Below are positions 333 through 12,915 of a DNA stretch of 13,281 nt, piece by piece. The translations under genes were made by a program, and so were the position numbers. The first letter of the stretch is position 1; every line of letters begins with the position of its first letter. Origin of the DNA: a virus (lineage: Duplodnaviria; Heunggongvirae; Uroviricota; Caudoviricetes). Where the stretch lies: IMG/VR virus record IMGVR_UViG_2713896785_000007; one strand, given 5' to 3'. The notes beneath the pieces are model-generated. The model saw only the letters and a program-made list of their open reading frames with translations. It did no database searches and was not told the DNA's origin.

Positions 333-382
333 NNNNNNNNNNNNNNNNNNNNNNNNNNNNNNNNNNNNNNNNNNNNNNNNNN
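333..382. other. Assembly gap (run of 50 N)
   Basis: Directly visible as N characters; true length and content unknown. Confidence 0.97.
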
Positions 383-1252: not shown

Positions 1253-3372
1253 ATCAGGTGAACGAGAGCCATAGCCGCGCATCCGATATCTGGCGCGAAG
1301 TGGCCTCGCTGTTTCGCCCACCCAGCCGGTTACCAGTAGCGGAAGCCATCAGGCGTTATATGCGGGTTCCACGGGGAGCCAATACTTCCGGTCCGTGGGA
1401 GTCATCGCTGACGCCCTATATGATTGACCCCATTAATACATTATCAGCCCGTGAATATGACGCGGTGGTGTTTGTGGGACCTGCGCGAACCGGGAAAACC
1501 GAAGGGCTGATTGATGGCTGGATTGTGTACGGCATCATCTGTGATCCGGCGGATATGCTGGTGGTGCAGATGACTGAGACGAAGGCGCGTGAGCATTCCA
1601 GAACGCGTCTTTCCAGGACGTTTCGCCACAGTCCGGAGGTCAGCAAGCGCCTCAGTCCTTCCCGTAATGACAACAACGTCCACGATAAAATGTTTCTTGA
1701 CGGCTCCTTCCTGAAGATTGGCTGGCCGTCGATCACCGTCTTTTCCTCTTCGGATTACCGTCGTGTGGCGCTGACGGATTATGACCGTTTCCCTGAAAAC
1801 GTGGACGGGGAAGGGGATGCCTTCACGCTGGCCTCAAAGCGTACCACCACCTTTATGTCTTCGGGGATGACCCTGGTCGAGAGTTCACCGGGGCGGGATA
1901 TCACCGATACCAAATGGCGTTGTGGTGGCGCACATGAGGCACCGCCAACAACGGGGATCCTGTCACTGTATAACCGGGGAGACCGCCGCCGGTGGTACTG
2001 GCCGTGTCCGCACTGCGGGGAATATTTTCAGCCGGTGATGGATAACATGACCGGATACCGGAATAACCCGGATTTTGTGGCTGCCGGTCAGGCTGCCCGT
2101 CTGATGTGTCCGCATTGTCGCGGGCTGATTGCCCCTGAGCAGAAACGCGAACTGAATAACCAGGGGATCTGGCTTCGTGAAGGTGAACGGGCGGCGGCGG
2201 ACGGCAGTATCACCGGAACGCCACGAAACTCCCGGATTGCGTCATTTTGGATGGAGGGGCCAGCTGCGGCGTTTCAGACCTGGGAACAACTGATTTTTAA
2301 ACTGCTGGCGGCAGAAGAAGAGTATGAGCGAACCGGCAGTGAAGAGACCCTGAAAGCGGTGGTGAACACCGATATCGGACGACCCTATCTGCCCCGTTCA
2401 GCCACGGAACAGCGTAAAAGTGAACTGCTTGAACAGCGTGCCGAGCCGTTTCCCCGGCGATCTGTGCCGGATGGTGTGCGTTTTATTGAGGCAACGGTTG
2501 ACGTACAGGGCGGTAAAAATCGCCGTTTTGTTGTGCAGATCACCGGATACGGAGAGCAGGGGGAACGCTGGATTGTTGATCGCTACAACATCCGGCATTC
2601 ACTGCGCTGCAGTCCCAACGGTGAAAGTCTGCCGGTTGATCCGGCGGCATATCCGGAGGACTGGGATTTGTTGCTGACGGATGTGTTCCATAAAACATGG
2701 CCGCTGGCTTCTGATCCGGATGTGCGCATGCGTCTGATGGCCATGGCGGTGGATACGGGAGGGGAAGCCGGGGTGACAGATAACGCCTATCGTTTCTGGC
2801 GTCGTTGCCGGAGTGACGGACTGGGCAACAGGGTGTTTCTGTTCAAGGGGGATGGACTTCGCCGTGACAGGCTGATTAACCGAACCTTCCCGGATAATAC
2901 CGGCAGAAGTGCCCGCCGTGCCAGAGCCAGTGGCGATGTCGCGCTGTGGCTGGTTCAGACGGATGCGTTTAAGGATCGTGTAAATAATGCCCTGTGGCGT
3001 GACACACCAGGGCCGAACTATATCCACTTTCCCGACTGGCTGGGGCGGTGGTTTTACGATGAGCTGACCTATGAAGAGCGCGGCAGTGACGGAAAATGGC
3101 GAAAACCGGGCAGGGGCGCTAACGAAGCGTTTGACCTGCTGGTTTATGCGGATGCGCTTGCCGTTCTGCATGGTTACGAAAAGATCCGCTGGCCCTCCGC
3201 ACCGGACTGGGCACAGCGGGAAACGTGGCTCGTCTTCCCGCAGGAGCGTTCTGGTGAAACGGTATCCCCGGAACTGACGGCCGGGGCAGAAAAACGCCGT
3301 CGCCGGAAGAAAAAACTGCGGACGGAGCGTGCGGAAGATAATCCATGGATAACATCAGGAGGCTGGTTGTGA
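1249..3372 (+). CDS. Terminase large subunit, GpA family (lambda gpA-like)
   Basis: 707-aa ORF. Walker A-like motif VVFVGPARTGKTEG. Paired CPHC motifs (WYWPCPHCGEYF ... LMCPHCRGL) resembling the lambda gpA zinc-ribbon region (ACPHCGEEQ). Basic C-terminal tail. Probable GTG start at 1249 with GAGG 7 nt upstream, overlapping the small-subunit stop. Confidence 0.93.
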   Translation: MNQVNESHSRASDIWREVASLFRPPSRLPVAEAIRRYMRVPRGANTSGPWESSLTPYMIDPINTLSAREYDAVVFVGPARTGKTEGLIDGWIVYGIICDPADMLVVQMTETKAREHSRTRLSRTFRHSPEVSKRLSPSRNDNNVHDKMFLDGSFLKIGWPSITVFSSSDYRRVALTDYDRFPENVDGEGDAFTLASKRTTTFMSSGMTLVESSPGRDITDTKWRCGGAHEAPPTTGILSLYNRGDRRRWYWPCPHCGEYFQPVMDNMTGYRNNPDFVAAGQAARLMCPHCRGLIAPEQKRELNNQGIWLREGERAAADGSITGTPRNSRIASFWMEGPAAAFQTWEQLIFKLLAAEEEYERTGSEETLKAVVNTDIGRPYLPRSATEQRKSELLEQRAEPFPRRSVPDGVRFIEATVDVQGGKNRRFVVQITGYGEQGERWIVDRYNIRHSLRCSPNGESLPVDPAAYPEDWDLLLTDVFHKTWPLASDPDVRMRLMAMAVDTGGEAGVTDNAYRFWRRCRSDGLGNRVFLFKGDGLRRDRLINRTFPDNTGRSARRARASGDVALWLVQTDAFKDRVNNALWRDTPGPNYIHFPDWLGRWFYDELTYEERGSDGKWRKPGRGANEAFDLLVYADALAVLHGYEKIRWPSAPDWAQRETWLVFPQERSGETVSPELTAGAEKRRRRKKKLRTERAEDNPWITSGGWL

Positions 3373-3581
3373 GCACAGAAGAAGCCAGAGAAATGATACA
3401 GCGGTACCGTGAAGCGGAAATGGCCGTACTGGAGGGAAAGTCTGTCACCTTCAACGGGCAGCAACTGACGCTGGAAAGCCTTTCTCAGATCCGCGCCGGA
3501 CGTCAGGAGTGGGAACGCAGGCTTGCCGCGATGGTGAGCCGCAGGCGGGGAAAACCGGGATTTAAACTGGCGAGGTTTTAA
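3369..3581 (+). CDS. W: Head-tail joining protein gpW-like
   Basis: C-terminus RRRGKPGF matches lambda gpW RRRGPAGF. A GTG at 3369 is preceded by AGGAGG (3356-3361), giving a ~70-aa protein equal in length to lambda W (68 aa). The longest ORF would start at the ATG at 3345. Overlaps the terminase stop at 3370-3372. Confidence 0.82.
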   Translation: MSTEEAREMIQRYREAEMAVLEGKSVTFNGQQLTLESLSQIRAGRQEWERRLAAMVSRRRGKPGFKLARF

Positions 3582-5083
3582 TGGCAATTATTGATGATGT
3601 GATCGGCGTGTTTTCCCCTAGGTGGAAAGCAGCCAGACTGCGTTCAAGGGCGTTAATCATGGCCTATGAGGCGGTGAAACCGACCCGGACACATAAAGCC
3701 CGGCGGGAAAATCGCTCTGCTGATCAGCTCAGTAAATACGGTGCGGTTTCCCTGCGGGAGCAGGCCCGTTTTCTGGATATCAATCATGACCTGGTGATTG
3801 GTGTGTTTGACAAGCTGGAAGAGCGGGTGATTGGTGCCAGGGGAATTATTGTGGAGCCTCAGCCATTACGAAAAAACGGGGAAATGGCGGCTGAGCTGGC
3901 TGCGGATATCCGCCGTTTGTGGGCTGAATGGTCCGTGAGTCCGGATGTGACAGGGCAGTATACCCGTCCTGTGCTTGAACGTTTACTGCTGCGGACCTGG
4001 CTGCGGGATGGTGAAGTGTTTGCGCAGATGGTCAGTGGTGCGGGAAACGGTCTGGAACGGACGGCGGGAGTGCCATTCTGGCTTGAGGCGATGGAGCCGG
4101 ATTTTGTTCCCATGCGCACTGATGAATCCGCCGGACTGAATCAGGGGGTTTTTCTTGATGAGTGGGGAAGACCGAAAAAATATCTGGTTTATAAAAATTA
4201 TCCGGTCAGCGGCCGGCAGAGTGATACGAAAGAAATCGCTGCCGGAAAAATGATCCACCTGAAGTTCACTCGTCGTCTGCACCAGACGCGAGGCTCATCC
4301 ATGTTATCGGGGGTGCTGATGCGGATCAGTGCCCTTAAGGAGTATGAGGATGCGGAACTGACAGCGGCGCGTATTGCTGCGGCGCTGGGACTGTATATCC
4401 GTAAAGGTGACGGACAGGACTATGAAGATCCGGGGATCAAAGAAACCGAGCGGGAAGTCCATATCACCCCGGGTATTATTTATGACGATTTGCGCAAGGG
4501 CGAGGATATCGGCATGGTCAAATCTGACCGTCCCAATCCCAACCTTGAAACTTTCCGCAACGGCCAGTTGCGTGCAGTGGCAGCAGGCAGTCGTCTGAGT
4601 TTTTCCAGTGCGGCGCGTAACTATAACGGCACCTACAGCGCCCAGCGGCAGGAGCTGGTCGAGTCCACGGATGGTTACCTGATCCTGCAGGACTGTTTTA
4701 TTGGCGCGGTAACCCGCCCGGTGTACCGGACATGGCTGAATATGGTGGTTGCGGCAGGTCTGCTGAAAATTCCGGCGGATGTGGAGATGAAAACGCTATA
4801 TAACGCGACGTATTCCGGTCCGGTGATGCCGTGGATCGACCCGGTTAAGGAAGCTGAAGCCTGGAGAATTCAGATCCGGGGTGGTGCAGCGACAGAATCT
4901 GACTGGGTGCGTGCCGGCGGGCGCAATCCGGATGAGGTCAAACGTCGCCGCAAGGCTGAAATTGATGAAAACAGCAGACTGGGGCTGGTCTTTGATACGG
5001 ATCCCGTCAACGACAAAGGAGGCAACAGTGCCGGAACTGAACGACAGTATCAGCGCGACACCGAAAGCCAGCATGAAGAATAA
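3581..5083 (+). CDS. B: Portal protein (lambda gpB family)
   Basis: 500-aa ORF in the lambda B position. Start ATG overlaps the W stop (TAATG). Shares recognisable similarity with lambda gpB, including the YEEAE/YEDAE and VxAARIAA region. Confidence 0.93.
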   Translation: MAIIDDVIGVFSPRWKAARLRSRALIMAYEAVKPTRTHKARRENRSADQLSKYGAVSLREQARFLDINHDLVIGVFDKLEERVIGARGIIVEPQPLRKNGEMAAELAADIRRLWAEWSVSPDVTGQYTRPVLERLLLRTWLRDGEVFAQMVSGAGNGLERTAGVPFWLEAMEPDFVPMRTDESAGLNQGVFLDEWGRPKKYLVYKNYPVSGRQSDTKEIAAGKMIHLKFTRRLHQTRGSSMLSGVLMRISALKEYEDAELTAARIAAALGLYIRKGDGQDYEDPGIKETEREVHITPGIIYDDLRKGEDIGMVKSDRPNPNLETFRNGQLRAVAAGSRLSFSSAARNYNGTYSAQRQELVESTDGYLILQDCFIGAVTRPVYRTWLNMVVAAGLLKIPADVEMKTLYNATYSGPVMPWIDPVKEAEAWRIQIRGGAATESDWVRAGGRNPDEVKRRRKAEIDENSRLGLVFDTDPVNDKGGNSAGTERQYQRDTESQHEE

Positions 5084-7052
5084 ATCCTGGTTCAGGATGC
5101 AGGCTGGGGTGCCGGGTGACGCGGATATTTATATTTATGACGAGATTGGTTTCTGGGGAGTTACCGCGAAGCAGTTTGTCAGCGAACTGAATGCTCTGGG
5201 TGATATCACCCACATTAATCTCCATATCAATTCACCGGGTGGCGATGTCTTTGAAGGCATCGCCATTTTTAATGCCCTGAAAAATCAGGGGGCGACCATT
5301 ACCGTGTATGTGGATGGCGTTGCCGCCTCGATGGCATCTGTGATTGCGATGGCCGGTGATACGGTCATTATGCCGGAAAATGCCTTCATGATGATCCATA
5401 AGCCATGGGGATTCAGTGGCGGGGATGCTGAGGATATGCGCAGTTATGCCGATTTGCTGGATAAAGTCGAATCGGTACTGTTGCCAGCCTATGCGCAGAA
5501 AACCGGAAAAACCACCGATGAAATTGCCGCCATGCTGGCGGATGAAACCTGGATGTCCGGTGCCGAATGTCTGGCACACGGATTTGCTGACCAGGTGACA
5601 CCCGCTGTTGAGGCAATGGCATGTATTCAGTCAAAACGTACAGAGGAATTTAAAAAGATGCCGGAATCCATCCGAAACATGATTACTCCGCCACGCAACA
5701 GTGCCCCGCGTGATACCACAGTGACAATCCCTGCACCGGCGGTAACAGAACCATCACCGGTACCGGCAGTGTCTGATGAGGCGACCATTCGCGCCCGCGT
5801 TATGGCAGAACAGAAAGCCCGCATGTCAGGCATTAACGATCTGTTTGCCATGTTCGGCGGTCGCTATCAGACGCTTCAGGCACAGTGCGTGGCTGATCCT
5901 GACTGTTCGCTGGAAATGGCCCGTGAACGACTGCTGAATGAAATGGGCAAGGAGTCCTCGCCGACCAACAAAAATACACCGGCCCATATTTATGCCGGAA
6001 ACGGCAATTTTGTGGGAGACGGGATCCGCCAGGCGATGCTGGCCCGTGCCGGATTTGAAAATGTCGAGAAGGATAACGCCTATAACGGGATGACCCTGCG
6101 TGAATGGGCTCGCATGTCACTGACGGAGCGCGGTATTGGGGTGGCCAGTTATAACCCCATGCAGATGGTCGGGCTGGCGCTGACGCACAGCACCTCTGAT
6201 TTTGGCAATATTCTGCTGGATGTGTCGAACAAGGGGCTGATCCAGGGCTGGGAGGAATCAGAAGAAACCTTCCAGAAGTGGACCCGTAAGGGACGCCTGT
6301 CAGACTTCAAAACAGCGTATCGCGTGGGGATGGGCGGTTTTGGTTCTCTGCGCCAGGTTCGTGAGGGGGCGGAGTATAAATACATCACCACCTCAGATCG
6401 CAAGGAGACCATTGCACTGGCCACTTACGGGGAGATTTTCTCCATCACCCGCCAGGCCATTATCAATGATGATCTGAATATGCTGGTGGACGTGCCGATG
6501 AAGATGGGGCGTGCGGCGAAGGCAACGATTGGTGACCTGGTCTACAAGGTGCTGACGGATAACCCGAAACTGTCCGACGGTAAGGCGCTGTTCCATGCCG
6601 ATCACAAAAATATTGCCACCGGGGGGATCTCCGTTTCCGGACTGGATGCGGCCCGTCAGATGATGCGCCTGCAGAAAGAAGGCGATCGTGCCCTGAATAT
6701 CCGTCCGGCCTTTATGCTGGTACCGGTGGCACTGGAGACGGTGGCGAACCAGACCATCAAATCGGCCAGTGTGAAAGGGGCGGATGCAAACGCCGGTGTC
6801 ATTAACCCTATCCAGAACTTTGCTGAGGTGATTGCAGAAGCGCGTCTTGATGCGGCAGACCCGAAAACCTGGTATCTGGCGGCGGCACAGGGCACTGACA
6901 CCATTGAAGTGGCCTGGCTGGATGGTGTGGACACGCCATACATTGATCAGCAGGAAGGTTTCACCACTGACGGCATTGCCACAAAAATCCGTATTGATGC
7001 CGGAGTGGCACCACTTGACTGGCGCGGGCTGGTGCGTTCGTCGGTGGCCTGA
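5028..7052 (+). CDS. Fusion protein: ClpP-like (S14) serine protease domain + linker/scaffold-like segment + HK97-fold major capsid protein domain
   Basis: Reading frame is open from 4881. Likely start is the GTG at 5028 (AAAGGAGG at 5015-5022) or the ATG at 5073. N-terminal domain carries ClpP-type catalytic motifs (GVAASMASVIAMAG with Ser nucleophile; MMIHKPWG with His). A Pro/Ala/Thr-rich linker follows (~5690-5800). C-terminal ~300 aa occupy the major capsid position. Domain call for the capsid part is by position and size, not by a motif I can name. Confidence 0.88.
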   Translation: MPELNDSISATPKASMKNKSWFRMQAGVPGDADIYIYDEIGFWGVTAKQFVSELNALGDITHINLHINSPGGDVFEGIAIFNALKNQGATITVYVDGVAASMASVIAMAGDTVIMPENAFMMIHKPWGFSGGDAEDMRSYADLLDKVESVLLPAYAQKTGKTTDEIAAMLADETWMSGAECLAHGFADQVTPAVEAMACIQSKRTEEFKKMPESIRNMITPPRNSAPRDTTVTIPAPAVTEPSPVPAVSDEATIRARVMAEQKARMSGINDLFAMFGGRYQTLQAQCVADPDCSLEMARERLLNEMGKESSPTNKNTPAHIYAGNGNFVGDGIRQAMLARAGFENVEKDNAYNGMTLREWARMSLTERGIGVASYNPMQMVGLALTHSTSDFGNILLDVSNKGLIQGWEESEETFQKWTRKGRLSDFKTAYRVGMGGFGSLRQVREGAEYKYITTSDRKETIALATYGEIFSITRQAIINDDLNMLVDVPMKMGRAAKATIGDLVYKVLTDNPKLSDGKALFHADHKNIATGGISVSGLDAARQMMRLQKEGDRALNIRPAFMLVPVALETVANQTIKSASVKGADANAGVINPIQNFAEVIAEARLDAADPKTWYLAAAQGTDTIEVAWLDGVDTPYIDQQEGFTTDGIATKIRIDAGVAPLDWRGLVRSSVA

Positions 7053-8784: not shown

Positions 8785-9455
8785 ATGGCAACACCAAATC
8801 CCCTTGAGCCGGTAAAAGGTGCCGGTANNNNNNNNNNNNNNNNNNNNNNNNNNNNNNNNNNNNNNNNNNNNNNNNNNNNNNNNNNNNNNNNNNNNNNNNN
8901 NNNNNNNNNACCGGGCAGGGGCAGAAGTCTGCAGGAGATACCAGTTTTACGCTGGCCTGGAAACCGGGAGAAGAAGGTCAGAAAGGGCTTATAGGCTGGT
9001 TTGAAAGTGGGGATGTGCGGGCCTATAAAATCCGTTTCCCAAATGGCACGGTGGATGTGTTCCGTGGCTGGGTCAGCAGTATCGGTAAGGCCGTGACGGC
9101 GAAAGAAGTGATCACCCGCACGGTGAAAGTCACTAACGTGGGTAAACCTTCTGTAGCGGAAGAACGCAGCAAAATTACGCCGGTCAGTGCGATTAAGGTG
9201 ACGCCGACATCCGGTACGGTGGCAAAAGGGAAAACAACCACCCTGACGGTTTCTTTTGAGCCGGAAAGTGCAACAGACAAGACGTTCAGAGCGGTTTCCG
9301 CCGATCCGTCGAAAGCCACCATTAGTGTGAAAGATATGACAATTACGGTAAACGGCGTGGCGACAGGTAAGGTGCAGATCCCTGTGGTGAGCGGAAATGG
9401 TCAGTTCGCCGCAGTGGCTGAAGTCACCGTTACTGAAGCGGGCGCTGCAGGGTAA
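8785..9455 (+). CDS. V: Major tail protein gpV (interrupted by an assembly gap at 8827-8909)
   Basis: N-terminus [14 protein letters not shown] matches lambda V MPVPNPTMPVKGAG. After the gap, [17 protein letters not shown]...[42 protein letters not shown] is near-identical to lambda V. C-terminal Ig-like (Big_2) region ends [17 protein letters not shown]. The frame changes across the N run because the gap length is arbitrary. Confidence 0.9.
8827..8909. other. Assembly gap (run of 83 N) inside gene V
   Basis: Directly visible as N characters. Confidence 0.97.
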
Positions 9456-9468
9456 ACGGAGGTAATAC

Positions 9469-9891
9469 ATGTTTCTGAAAACAGAACAATTTGAATATAA
9501 CGGTGTGTCCGTCACGCTTTCCGAATTGTCTGCGCTGCAGCGGTTTGATTATATAAAGTTTGTTTCAGACGCAGAACAACAGGAGACAACGAAGCATGAT
9601 GTCGTGCACATTAACCAGCGATATCTGGAAACGGCATCCCTGCTTGTGGCGATGTCGCTATGGCATTCCCATTCCCTCAAAGGCACTCTGGCCTCTCCGG
9701 AGACAGAGATGCAGCAGATCCGCCGTGAAGTGATGCTGGGATGGCCTGCTGATGCACTGAATCAGGCAACGAACCGGGTGCTTTATCTTTCAGGTATGCT
9801 GGATAACCGGCACGATGCCGATCCTGAACCAACCGGGAAAACAGAAGCGACTGAGCCGGTAACATCAAAAAAGCATTCGAAGGCGAGCTGA
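9469..9891 (+). CDS. G: Tail assembly chaperone gpG
   Basis: 140 aa, the same length as lambda gpG. MFLKTEQFEYNGVSVTLSELSALQR... matches lambda G MFLKTESFEHNGVTVTLSELSALQR.... GGAGG Shine-Dalgarno upstream. Confidence 0.93.
   Translation: MFLKTEQFEYNGVSVTLSELSALQRFDYIKFVSDAEQQETTKHDVVHINQRYLETASLLVAMSLWHSHSLKGTLASPETEMQQIRREVMLGWPADALNQATNRVLYLSGMLDNRHDADPEPTGKTEATEPVTSKKHSKAS
9867..9873 (+). promoter_or_regulatory. Programmed -1 ribosomal frameshift slippery heptamer A AAA AAG (G to G-T)
   Basis: The heptamer AAAAAAG sits in the X XXY YYZ register of the G frame, 5 codons before the G stop. The -1 frame is open from this point to 10226 and encodes a gpT homologue. Confidence 0.8.
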
Positions 9892-10226
9892 ACTTTGTCC
9901 TGAAACTGGCGCGTGAGATGGGGAGAGCCGACTGGCGCGCCATGCTTGCCGGGATGACATCCACCGAATATGCCGACTGGCGACGTTTTTACTGCACGCA
10001 TTATTTTCAGGATACCCAGCTGGATATGCATTTTTCCGGGCTGACGTACGCCGTACTCAGCCTGTTTTTTTGCGATCCGGATATGCATCCGGCGGATTTC
10101 AGCCTGTTCGCTCCGGAGGCAGAGGAAGGGCAGGCGGAGACGCCGGACGAAAATGATGTACTGATGCAGAAGGCGGCGGGCCTCGCCGGTGGAGTCCGTT
10201 TCGGGGAGGAGGGAAGGAGGTTGTGA
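9873..10226 (+). CDS. T: gpT portion of the G-T tail assembly chaperone fusion (expressed by -1 frameshift from G; fusion spans 9469-10226)
   Basis: The -1 frame encodes ...EMGRADWRAMLAGMTSTEYADWRRFY.THYF.D..LDMHFSGLTYAVLSLFF.DPDMHP.DFSL...DVLMQKAAGLAGGVRFG, matching lambda gpT. There is no independent start with a ribosome-binding site; the in-frame ATG at 9918 is internal. Confidence 0.85.
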   Translation, partial: AFEGELNFVLKLAREMGRADWRAMLAGMTSTEYADWRRFYCTHYFQDTQLDMHFSGLTYAVLSLFFCDPDMHPADFSLFAPEAEEGQAETPDENDVLMQKAAGLAGGVRFGEEGRRL

Positions 10227-10269
10227 CAGTTATTGATGGTATCAGAGGACATTTCAGGAGGTGACCACG

Positions 10270-12915
10270 ATGGCAGGTAATTTTGCCGATCTGACAGCCG
10301 TGCTGACACTGGATTCTGCCCGTTTTTCTGAAGAGGCAGCGCGGGTAAAAAAAGAGCTGGGTGAAACCAGTGCGCTTGCTGATTTGATGTCCGGGAAAGT
10401 CAGTCAGTCTTTCAGAAAACAGGCTGATGCTGCTGAGCAGAGTCTGAGCCGACAGGCGCTGGCTGCACAAAAAGCCGGGATATCAGTCGGACAGTATAAG
10501 GCTGCCATGCGCACACTGCCCGCACAGTTCACGGATATTGTCACTCAGCTTGCCGGTGGTCAGAATCCCTTCCTTATCATGCTGCAGCAGGGGGGGCAGA
10601 TCAGCGATTCATTCGGTGGACCGCTCAGCCTGCTTACCCTGCTGAAGGAGGAACTTCTCGGGATCAGGGATGCCTCTGAATCATCAGAGGAGTCGCTGTC
10701 AGATACGGCAAATGCACTGGCTGAAAATGCCCGGAATGCCGGTGAGCTGGGACGATTTATGTCGGTGGCCCGTGTGGCGGCAGGTGGCGGGGTTGCCGTA
10801 CTGGCCGCGCTTGCTGCCGCCGCCTGGCAGGCAGAGCAGGCTGACCGGGCCTTATTGCGTTCACTGACCCTGACCGGAGGGGCTGCTGCCACCACAACGG
10901 CAGAATTGTGGAAAATGGCCGGGGTGATCAGCGATGAAGCCGGTGGTGGTATCAGACAGGCGGCAGAAAATCTGGCCCGTCTGGCAGAAAGCGGGAAATA
11001 TACCGCCGGGCAGCTACGGATCATGGGGGAAACCTCTCAGAGATGGCTGCAGACGGTGGGGGACGATGCCGGGAAGGTGGAAAAAGCCTTTGAAGGGATT
11101 GCAGCAGATCCGGTGAAGGCGCTGGCCTCCCTGAATCAGCAGTATAACTTCCTGAGCGTTTCCCAGTTACGCCATATTGATGAGCTTGAGCGCACGAAAG
11201 GTAAACAGGCTGCGGTGACGGAGGCGATGTCCCTGTTTGCGGATGTCATGAATGCACGTCTGGAGCAACTTGATAAAGCGGCCACGCCGGTGGAAAAAAT
11301 CTGGGACGATGTTAAAACCTGGACTTCTGACGCATGGGCATGGATAGGTGATCATACACTGGGGGCACTCAGTCTGATCACTGACGTGGTGGCCGGAACC
11401 GTTGAACAGGTGAAGCTGCTGCTTGTGCAGGGGGATCTGGCGCTGGCTGAATTTATTCAGTCAGCCTGGGAAACGACAAAGAATGTGCCCGGCGTTGGTG
11501 CGTTGTTTGGTGAACTGGCAGAAGAGAACCGCGTATTTATTGAGAAAACAAAACGTGATGAACTGGCGCTGAGAAAATCCATTGCGGAACGGGATGCGCG
11601 TATACGCCAGGGGGAAATGGGGTACATCAACCGTTCGCGTGCAACAGGCGTCAGCAAAGGTCCGGGGCAGCAGGAAGCCGTCAGCCGTCTGGCTGAAGAG
11701 CTGACAGGTAAAAAGCATACATCACCGAAAACGCGCTCTGCCGGGGAGAGGGAAGAGGAGCAGGCAAGAGAGGCTCTGCTTGCCCTTGAAGCTGAGCTCA
11801 GGACGCTGGAAAAACACAGCGGTGCGAATGAGAAAATCAGCCGGCAGCGCCGTGATTTATGGAAGGCGGAAAGTCAGTATGCGGTCCTGAAAGAGGCTGC
11901 CACGAAACGACAGTTATCTGAGCAGGAAAAATCCCTGCTGGCGCATAAAGACGAGACGCTGGAGTACAAACGCCAGCTGGCTGAGCTGGGCGACAAGGTT
12001 GAATACCAGAAACGCCTGAATGAGCTGGCACAGCAGGCGGTGCGGTTTGAAGAGCAGCAGAGCTCGAAGCAGGCCGCCATCAGCGCAAAAGCCCGCGGTC
12101 TCACTGACCGTCAGGCGCAGCGGGAGTCTGAAGCGCAGCGTCTTCGGGACGTGTACGGTGATAATCCGGCTGCGCTGGCGAAGGCCACATCGGCACTGAA
12201 GAACACCTGGTCTGCGGAGGAGCAGCTTCGTGGAAGCTGGATGGCCGGGCTGAAGTCCGGCTGGGGCGAGTGGGCGGAAAGTGCGACGGACAGTTTTTCG
12301 CAGGTTAAAAGTGCTGCCACGCAGACCTTTGACGGTATTGCACAGAATATGGCGGCGATGCTGACCGGTGCAGAGGCAGACTGGCGGGGATTCACCCGTT
12401 CGGTGCTGTCCATGATGACAGAAATCCTGCTTAAACAGGCCATGGTGGGCATTGTCGGGCGTATCGGCAGCGCCATTGGCGGTGCTTTCGGTGGTGGTGC
12501 ATCTGCTTCCTCGGGGACGGCCATTGAGGCTGCGGCGGCGAACTTCCATTTCGCGACCGGAGGATTTACGGGGACGGGCGGCAAATATGAGCCTGCGGGG
12601 ATAGTTCACCGCGGGGAGTTTGTTTTCACGAAAGAGGCAACCAGCCGGATAGGTGTGGGGAATCTTTACCGTCTGATGCGCGGCTATGCGGAAGGTGGTT
12701 ATGTGGGTGGTGCCGGAAGTCCGGCGCAGATGCGGCGGGCGGAAGGTATTAATTTTAATCAGAACAATCACGTGGTGATTCAGAACGACGGTATCAACGG
12801 ACAGGCGGGGCCGCAGCTGATGAAGGCGGTGTATGACATGGCCCGCAAGGGGGCGCAGGATGAGATTCAGGCGCAGATGCGTGATGGCGGCGTCTTTTCC
12901 GGAGGCAGGCGATGA
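10270..12915 (+). CDS. H: Tail length tape measure protein gpH
   Basis: ATG at 10270 preceded by AGGAGG (10255-10260); the longest ORF starts at GTG 10261. The N-terminal ~110 aa and the C-terminal ~400 aa (e.g. LTLQAELRTLEKHAGANEKIS.QRRDLWKAE, TGGFTGTGGKYEPAGIVHRGEFVFTKEATSRIGVGNLYRLMRGYA) are near-identical to lambda gpH; the middle is divergent. Confidence 0.96.
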   Translation: MAGNFADLTAVLTLDSARFSEEAARVKKELGETSALADLMSGKVSQSFRKQADAAEQSLSRQALAAQKAGISVGQYKAAMRTLPAQFTDIVTQLAGGQNPFLIMLQQGGQISDSFGGPLSLLTLLKEELLGIRDASESSEESLSDTANALAENARNAGELGRFMSVARVAAGGGVAVLAALAAAAWQAEQADRALLRSLTLTGGAAATTTAELWKMAGVISDEAGGGIRQAAENLARLAESGKYTAGQLRIMGETSQRWLQTVGDDAGKVEKAFEGIAADPVKALASLNQQYNFLSVSQLRHIDELERTKGKQAAVTEAMSLFADVMNARLEQLDKAATPVEKIWDDVKTWTSDAWAWIGDHTLGALSLITDVVAGTVEQVKLLLVQGDLALAEFIQSAWETTKNVPGVGALFGELAEENRVFIEKTKRDELALRKSIAERDARIRQGEMGYINRSRATGVSKGPGQQEAVSRLAEELTGKKHTSPKTRSAGEREEEQAREALLALEAELRTLEKHSGANEKISRQRRDLWKAESQYAVLKEAATKRQLSEQEKSLLAHKDETLEYKRQLAELGDKVEYQKRLNELAQQAVRFEEQQSSKQAAISAKARGLTDRQAQRESEAQRLRDVYGDNPAALAKATSALKNTWSAEEQLRGSWMAGLKSGWGEWAESATDSFSQVKSAATQTFDGIAQNMAAMLTGAEADWRGFTRSVLSMMTEILLKQAMVGIVGRIGSAIGGAFGGGASASSGTAIEAAAANFHFATGGFTGTGGKYEPAGIVHRGEFVFTKEATSRIGVGNLYRLMRGYAEGGYVGGAGSPAQMRRAEGINFNQNNHVVIQNDGINGQAGPQLMKAVYDMARKGAQDEIQAQMRDGGVFSGGRR

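Follow-up and report, generated by a model that had tools for sequence, protein, structure and literature searches.

The locus described here raises the question of how the T-frame product of a lambda-like G-T gene pair is made when the slippery heptamer between the two genes is A_AAA_AAG and not lambda's G_GGA_AAG, and whether such an exchange would alter the ratio of G to G-T. The -1 frameshift that yields G-T from lambda gene G was reportedly described by Levin, Hendrix and Casjens in 1993 and by Xu, Hendrix and Duda in 2004, 2013 and 2014. We examined a stretch of 13,281 nucleotides of viral DNA (IMG/VR record IMGVR_UViG_2713896785_000007), referred to below as the window. A first-pass annotation of its sequence had proposed that the mechanism is conserved here with a different, dnaX-like heptamer, and that the difference might change the efficiency of frameshifting.

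The window is a lambdoid prophage of the EHEC Stx-phage (Shiga-toxin-type Escherichia coli) type. Over the region from 9400 to 10300 it is 99.8% identical to VT1-Sakai and CP-1639, and several Stx2 phages and ASU11 share at least 98% identity with the same region. Related sequence is present in 3631 of 5426 complete E. coli genomes, with identities at the best place ranging from about 60% to more than 99%; the G-T module occupies up to 8 places per complete genome, and 454 of the 5426 genomes have one place that covers at least 80% of the 2-kb query. The gene order, confirmed by Pfam matches, is Z-U-V-G-T-H-M, which sets G and G-T between the major tail protein gene V and the tape measure gene H (Table 1). 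Gene H has a Shine-Dalgarno (SD) sequence, AGGAGG, with a pairing energy of -11.6 kcal/mol. Two runs of N in the window (333-382 and 8828-8909) are assembly gaps. The second, an 82-N run inside V, replaces 164 nt of relatives, as judged by comparison with an intact relative, and V appears as two out-of-frame ORFs because this run interrupts it; the reading of V as a frameshifted pseudogene was accordingly rejected. Elsewhere in the window, a single ORF of 723 aa (4881-7052) follows the portal gene, with whose 3' end it shares about 200 nt, and occupies the place of C, Nu3, D and E in lambda; the ORF may represent a protease/scaffold/capsid fusion.

Table 1. Coordinates of features at the G-T junction of the window, and slippery-site types at the homologous site in relatives
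Feature	Position or occurrence	Strand	Details
Gene V, major tail tube protein, upstream neighbor	8785..9455	+	PF16461 and Big_2
Gene G, tail assembly chaperone, 140 aa	9469..9891	+	ATG 9469; stop TGA 9889-9891
G/T overlap, 34 nt	9855..9888	+	bounded by the -1-frame TGA 9852-9854 and the G stop
Slippery heptamer A_AAA_AAG	9867..9873	+	sequence, register, homologous column to lambda and N15, invariant in the clade
T segment, -1 frame, 117 aa	9873..10226	+	first codon GCA 9873-9875; stop TGA 10224-10226
Candidate downstream RNA hairpin	9882..9950	+	outer stem 9882-9888/9944-9950; inner stem 9907-9914/9935-9942; starts 8 nt past the heptamer
Internal ATG, Met151 of the fusion, "T" start in public annotations	9918..9920	+	no SD
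Gene H, tape measure protein, downstream neighbor	10270..12915	+	PF06791 and PF09718; start ATG 10270
G_GGA_AAG at the homologous site	83 of 119 T-anchored loci
G_GAA_AAG at the homologous site	22 of 119 T-anchored loci
A_AAA_AAG at the homologous site	13 of 119 T-anchored loci		L167 included
A_GGA_AAG at the homologous site	1 of 119 T-anchored loci

Both halves of the putative fusion belong to the families of the lambda proteins. The G protein matches PF06894 (E=6.8e-34; 116.8 bits against a cut-off of 27) and the equivalog family TIGR01674 (E=1.9e-33; 115.3 bits against a cut-off of 74.45), and its start is preceded by a strong SD, GGAGG, at -10.8 kcal/mol. In the -1 frame, a TGA at 9852-9854 is followed by an open stretch from 9855 to the T stop. 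Residues 140-249 of the fusion match the gpT equivalog TIGR01715 (E=3.1e-51; 172.3 bits against a cut-off of 77.35), PF06223 is matched at E=4e-12, and the T segment shares 73-84% identity with its counterparts in lambda and other relatives. The first-pass annotation had placed the end of gpG at 9891 and had described the -1 frame as open from the heptamer onward and coding for a gpT homologue; it was right on each point, and there is no stop codon in the -1 frame between 9867 and 9918. The predicted G-T product, join(9469..9873, 9873..10226), has 252 aa and the junction peptide ...TSKK-AFEGELNF..., in agreement with the junction (...SKK-AFEGELNF...) proposed in that annotation. The exact G protein is found in at least 982 public contigs, and a collection of 15 billion proteins contained no exact G-T fusion protein of the window's clade. 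This absence is an annotation gap and not evidence against the fusion.

The T segment ends 27-35 aa before the T of lambda and of most relatives. PGAP flags this short allele as incomplete ("missing C-terminus"), and since the segment is shorter and carries this mark, full function of the fusion is not guaranteed. Around this end (10200-10270), divergence from relatives begins directly after the residues GVRFG, along with the start of H, a pattern that suggests a mosaic module boundary. The in-frame residues past the T stop (LLMVSEDISGG) are still like those of lambda MLMTVSEGIAGG.

The heptamer lies in the register required for a tandem slip. Position 9868 opens a G codon, which gives TC_A AAA AAG, the X_XXY_YYZ arrangement that the first-pass annotation had read. 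Since the TGA at 9852-9854 and the G stop bound the overlap of the two frames, a productive -1 shift is confined to these 34 nt, and AAAAAAG is the sole in-register heptamer within them. There are 12 in-register X_XXY_YYZ heptamers in the 3993 codons of the window's genes, two of them of the efficient XXXAAAG type, so that the 11-codon overlap would contain one by chance with a probability of about 3%, or of about 0.5% if only the XXXAAAG type is counted. The bare 7-mer AAAAAAG shows no enrichment in the window (three seen, 2.1 expected); the significance of this copy rests on its register, position and conservation. The only other in-register XXXAAAG heptamer of the window is a G_GGA_AAG at 3434-3440, in a shift-prone register within a small W-like ORF (3345-3581); the -1 frame there is open for 43 codons, to 3565, and the heptamer may be a product of chance. 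Early in the tape measure gene H there is also an in-register A_AAA_AAA (10347-10353), where a shift would merely abort translation, since the -1 frame meets a stop after 5 codons.

The site is conserved in position among relatives, and its sequence varies in a restricted way. In alignment, the heptamer of the window occupies the exact column of lambda's G_GGA_AAG, and the G stops share a column as well (lambda, GCG GGA AAG TGT TCG ACG GTG AGC TGA; window, TCA AAA AAG CAT TCG AAG GCG AGC TGA). The proposal that A_AAA_AAG stands here in the place of the lambda heptamer is supported. We sampled relatives in two ways. Among 80 IMG/VR loci found through G, AAAAAAG was present in all 73 intact relatives of the clade (G identity 86-100%), and the more distant G loci of the same 80 (43-47% identity) carried GGGAAAG. 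One IMG/VR relative (L069, 1890-1900) has lost both the heptamer and the G stop through a deletion of 31 nt. We considered it as a natural in-frame G-T fusion and rejected this reading: the deletion joins G to the +1 frame, the locus is broken, and the module in L069 has decayed. The second sample, anchored on a conserved DNA motif of the T gene, comprised 119 usable loci with four site types (Table 1), and thus the A-site A_AAG is invariant and the P-site triplet alone varies.

On a tree of G proteins, the type of heptamer goes with the clade; two lineages carry A_AAA_AAG, that of the window and L167, and their G proteins are only 50% identical to each other. The carriers of G_GAA_AAG include Kluyvera prophages (among L101-L103, L115 and others), and phage N15 (L230, 738-744) has it as well. 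This heptamer is imperfect, in that tRNA-Glu in the P site would need to re-pair with GGA, and 12 of 21 unique sequences with this heptamer continue with CC, the most shift-prone 3' context reported (PMC5009743). A profile scan of genome contigs with the T alignment gave 24 loci, mostly lambda DNA in unrelated assemblies, together with Kluyvera relatives. Lambda-type junctions were seen on low-coverage contigs labelled Neobacillus, Oceanobacillus, Kitasatospora, Shewanella, Pseudomonas, Enterococcus, Psychrobacter and others (L086-L100, L104, L105 and L107), with a 51-nt junction context letter-identical to that of lambda. These are almost certainly lambda DNA contaminating the assemblies.

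We consider it very probable that the window's G-T fusion is made by a -1 ribosomal slip at A_AAA_AAG and that the two proteins have lambda-like chaperone roles. Most ribosomes would end G at its TGA and release the 140-aa gpG. A minority of them, probably a few percent, would slip back by one base at the heptamer, with the single E. coli tRNA-Lys(mnm5s2UUU) in the P site on AAA 9868-9870 and in the A site on AAG 9871-9873. Both tRNAs would re-pair with AAA AAA at 9867-9872, and the -1 frame would then be read from GCA 9873 to TGA 10224-10226, giving the 252-aa fusion. In lambda, according to the accounts of Levin et al. (1993) cited in PMC5009743 and PMC3296357, frameshifting at G_GGA_AAG is established and expression of the T frame requires it; in the lambda literature, tail assembly depends on both products, which are made at a high ratio of G to G-T. 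If the analogy with lambda holds, the G part would bind the tape measure protein H, the T part would recruit the tail tube protein V, the low rate of shifting would set the high G:G-T ratio needed in tail assembly, and neither protein would be found in the virion.

Public annotations present T differently. In all seven annotations of the clade that we examined (VT1-Sakai; CP-1639, feature names only; ASU11; 1720a-02; PhiR12_2_star; Stx2_95; and RefSeq/PGAP, for the same allele), T is a separate gene from ATG 9918 and slippage is recorded in none; the one PGAP record examined also flags T as a pseudogene. If T were such an independent gene, the heptamer would be a mere Lys-Lys dipeptide in G, and ATG 9918 is indeed the first start codon in the T frame, 17 codons past the heptamer. 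Its anti-SD pairing, however, is only -2.3 kcal/mol, a value equalled or beaten at 76% of the window's ATG triplets, against -9.5 to -11.6 kcal/mol for U, G, H and M. The conserved T sequence also begins too early for this start: the TIGR01715 match opens at fusion residue 140, 11 residues before the ATG, and the upstream motif F.GEL.F.L.LARE, which lies partly past the G stop, is invariant in six aligned T segments. Where the window has this Met, Kluyvera relatives carry Phe, as does N15, and the first possible T start in the Kluyvera relatives is 25 codons past the heptamer. Together with the dependence of T-frame expression on frameshifting in lambda noted above, these observations indicate that ATG 9918 is probably not an initiation site, and they make an independent T gene very improbable. 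The fusion might instead arise mainly by transcriptional slippage, with RNA polymerase adding one A in the A6 run. An inserted A gives exactly ...SKK-AFEGEL..., and so protein data alone cannot separate this route from a -1 ribosomal shift; runs of A or T are also known sites of polymerase slippage (PMC5009743, PMC3711429). Yet the run here has only six As, and the published cases have more than 7 A or 8 T, with 9 A in Thermus dnaX (PMC3711429). The lambda (GGGAAAG) and N15 (GGAAAAG) sites have only three or four As, and a mechanism conserved at this position must therefore be ribosomal. Moreover, an invariant A-site A_AAG in a fixed register matters for ribosomes and not for RNA polymerase. 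Of the explanations considered, we judge transcriptional slippage the least probable, slightly below an independent start for T.

It is somewhat easier to imagine, and still unlikely, that the signal has been kept intact by descent and is functionless here, either in a defective prophage or with an inactive short T allele. Decay of the module does occur, as the deletion in L069 makes plain, and EHEC genomes hold up to 8 copies of it; the window comes from a draft assembly with gaps, and PGAP's flag on the T allele points the same way. Against this, the short allele is carried by ASU11, for which the record gives mitomycin C induction as the source, and by complete-phage-genome records, namely 1720a-02 and Stx2-converting phages. 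About a third of the loci of the clade have the short allele, and in these G, the heptamer and the T frame are undamaged; the apparent disruption of V is only the assembly gap. On balance the site is real and looks functional.

Near the window's heptamer, stimulators of the dnaX kind are not apparent. We found no SD-like stimulator upstream, the best anti-SD pairing between -20 and -4 being -4.4 kcal/mol on a scale with a window background median of -3.2 and an AGGGAG control at -7.4 kcal/mol. Table S8 of Sharma et al. (PMC4066793) likewise lists an SD for neither the lambda gpG cluster nor the cluster of HK97-like chaperones. No Rfam family, the dnaX frameshift element included, was matched at E<=10, and no compact hairpin was found downstream, where the 60-nt fold has z=+1.72. 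Longer folds include a candidate hairpin (Table 1), with minimum free energy at z=-2.05 in the 90-nt fold and z=-1.19 in the 140-nt fold; the same stems occur in lambda, with z=-2.5. Its pairs are 92% canonical across 60 unique relatives, with one GC<->AT double change, at 9882/9950; as a test of covariation this is weak, being confounded by the high conservation of the T N-terminus at the protein level and by 3' strands that the search pattern had fixed. In the analysis of Sharma et al., the hairpins predicted for the lambda gpG and HK97-like chaperone clusters did not exceed the local average in stability (ddG 0.020 for both; PMC4066793).

The suggestion that the different heptamer may change frameshift efficiency, and with it the G to G-T ratio, fares poorly against published reporter data. 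In E. coli, Sharma et al. (2014) placed each of the 64 heptamers in the same reporter contexts and measured frameshifting (PMC4066793, Table S3). AAAAAAG gave 0.291% without a stimulator, 4.26% with the IS911 stimulators and 39.0% with the IS3 pseudoknot, and the corresponding values for GGGAAAG were 0.277%, 3.80% and 43.0% (PMC4066793). The two heptamers perform so alike that the exchange is unlikely to alter efficiency; A_AAA_AAG itself ranks among the top three heptamers for frameshifting in E. coli (PMC4066793). The heptamer is followed by C in the window and by U in lambda, and a 3' C is reported to be somewhat more shift-prone at an A_AAA_AAG site (PMC5009743). Frameshifting at the lambda G-T site is put at about 4% in the account of Levin et al. 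(1993) cited in PMC5009743 and PMC3296357. By analogy, the rate at the window's site is probably a few percent, near that of lambda, because the values of Sharma et al. match and because an HK97-like chaperone with A_AAA_AAG gave 6-7%. It is conceivable, if doubtful, that the P-site triplet (GGG, AAA or GGA according to lineage), the 3' base and the hairpin at 9882-9950 act together to hold the G:G-T ratio constant from one lineage to another. Tail production in A_AAA_AAG lineages would then be tied more tightly than that of lambda to host tRNA thiolation and sulfur metabolism (the Tus/MnmA/IscS network; Maynard et al. 2012), because both slipping tRNAs in such a lineage are thiolated tRNA-Lys.

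Set beside known systems, the site is an ordinary -1 frameshift (G to G-T) of the lambda family of tail assembly chaperones. It shares with lambda the TIGR01674 and TIGR01715 families, the V-G-T-H order, the equal alignment columns of slippery site and G stop, and an A-site A_AAG read by tRNA-Lys, and the T segment of lambda is 73% identical to that of the window. It differs in the P site, which is GGA/GGG and read by tRNA-Gly in lambda but AAA and read by tRNA-Lys in the window, in the 3' base, in a G part that is only 41% identical, and in a T segment that is 27 aa shorter at the C-terminus. The gp14/gp15 pair of N15 (GenBank AF064539) is homologous to G-T, with a slippery site at the equal position, for which the record annotates the feature "slippery sequence for -1 translational frameshift"; that the heptamer can differ at the lambda G-T site has thus already been recognized. 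N15 differs from the window in its imperfect G_GAA_AAG, where the P-site tRNA-Glu would re-pair with GGA, and in having no internal ATG.

The heptamer of the window is also known from other genes. In E. coli O157 Sakai, ECs_1801 of prophage Sp9 (L229, 15366-15372) encodes a 124-aa HK97-like chaperone with A_AAA_AAG directly before its TAG stop, and the -1 ORF runs on into ECs_1802, which is annotated as separate with a start about 95 nt further on. Like the site in the window, it belongs to a tail chaperone encoded between the major tail and tape measure genes in the same host. Unlike it, the Sp9 heptamer abuts the stop (AAG TAG), and its protein has no detectable similarity to the window's G (blastp E=1.3). 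The Sharma cluster A_AAA_AAG_25 (ECs1801), in which frameshifting is rated safely inferred (PMC4066793), was considered as the home of the window's gene and rejected, since Sp9 ECs_1801 is unrelated and has only the heptamer in common. For the HK97-like chaperones (GeneTack cluster 10), the frameshifting of 6-7% cited above was measured on two genes (PMC3711429); the supplements of Antonov et al. (2013) contain nothing on tail genes. The dnaX gene, to which the first-pass annotation had likened the heptamer, has the identical seven-base sequence and the same tRNA-Lys (PMC5009743), and the comparison holds for these seven bases. It does not extend to the surroundings: dnaX adds an upstream SD-like stimulator and a stable stem-loop, shifts at about 50% and yields a shorter product, whereas the window's site has no upstream SD, no Rfam match and no compact stable stem-loop, its downstream structure is at best weak and long-range, and its shifted product is the longer one. 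The mechanism and the family are already known, as are the facts that the heptamer varies at this site and that tail chaperones use A_AAA_AAG. A search that had the survey of Xu et al. (2004) outside its range gave no paper or record in which A_AAA_AAG is named for the gpG family itself.

The site opens no new question, and its value is mainly practical. It allows a corrected annotation of Stx-phage tail genes in what is a very common EHEC prophage module, and the locus provides a clean test case for frameshift predictors. The real T-frame product is almost certainly the 252-aa G-T fusion, made by ribosomal slippage and missing from public protein sets. For the lambda family of tail assembly chaperones, the locus is another case in which the P-site half of the G-T slippery site varies and the A-site A_AAG is fixed.
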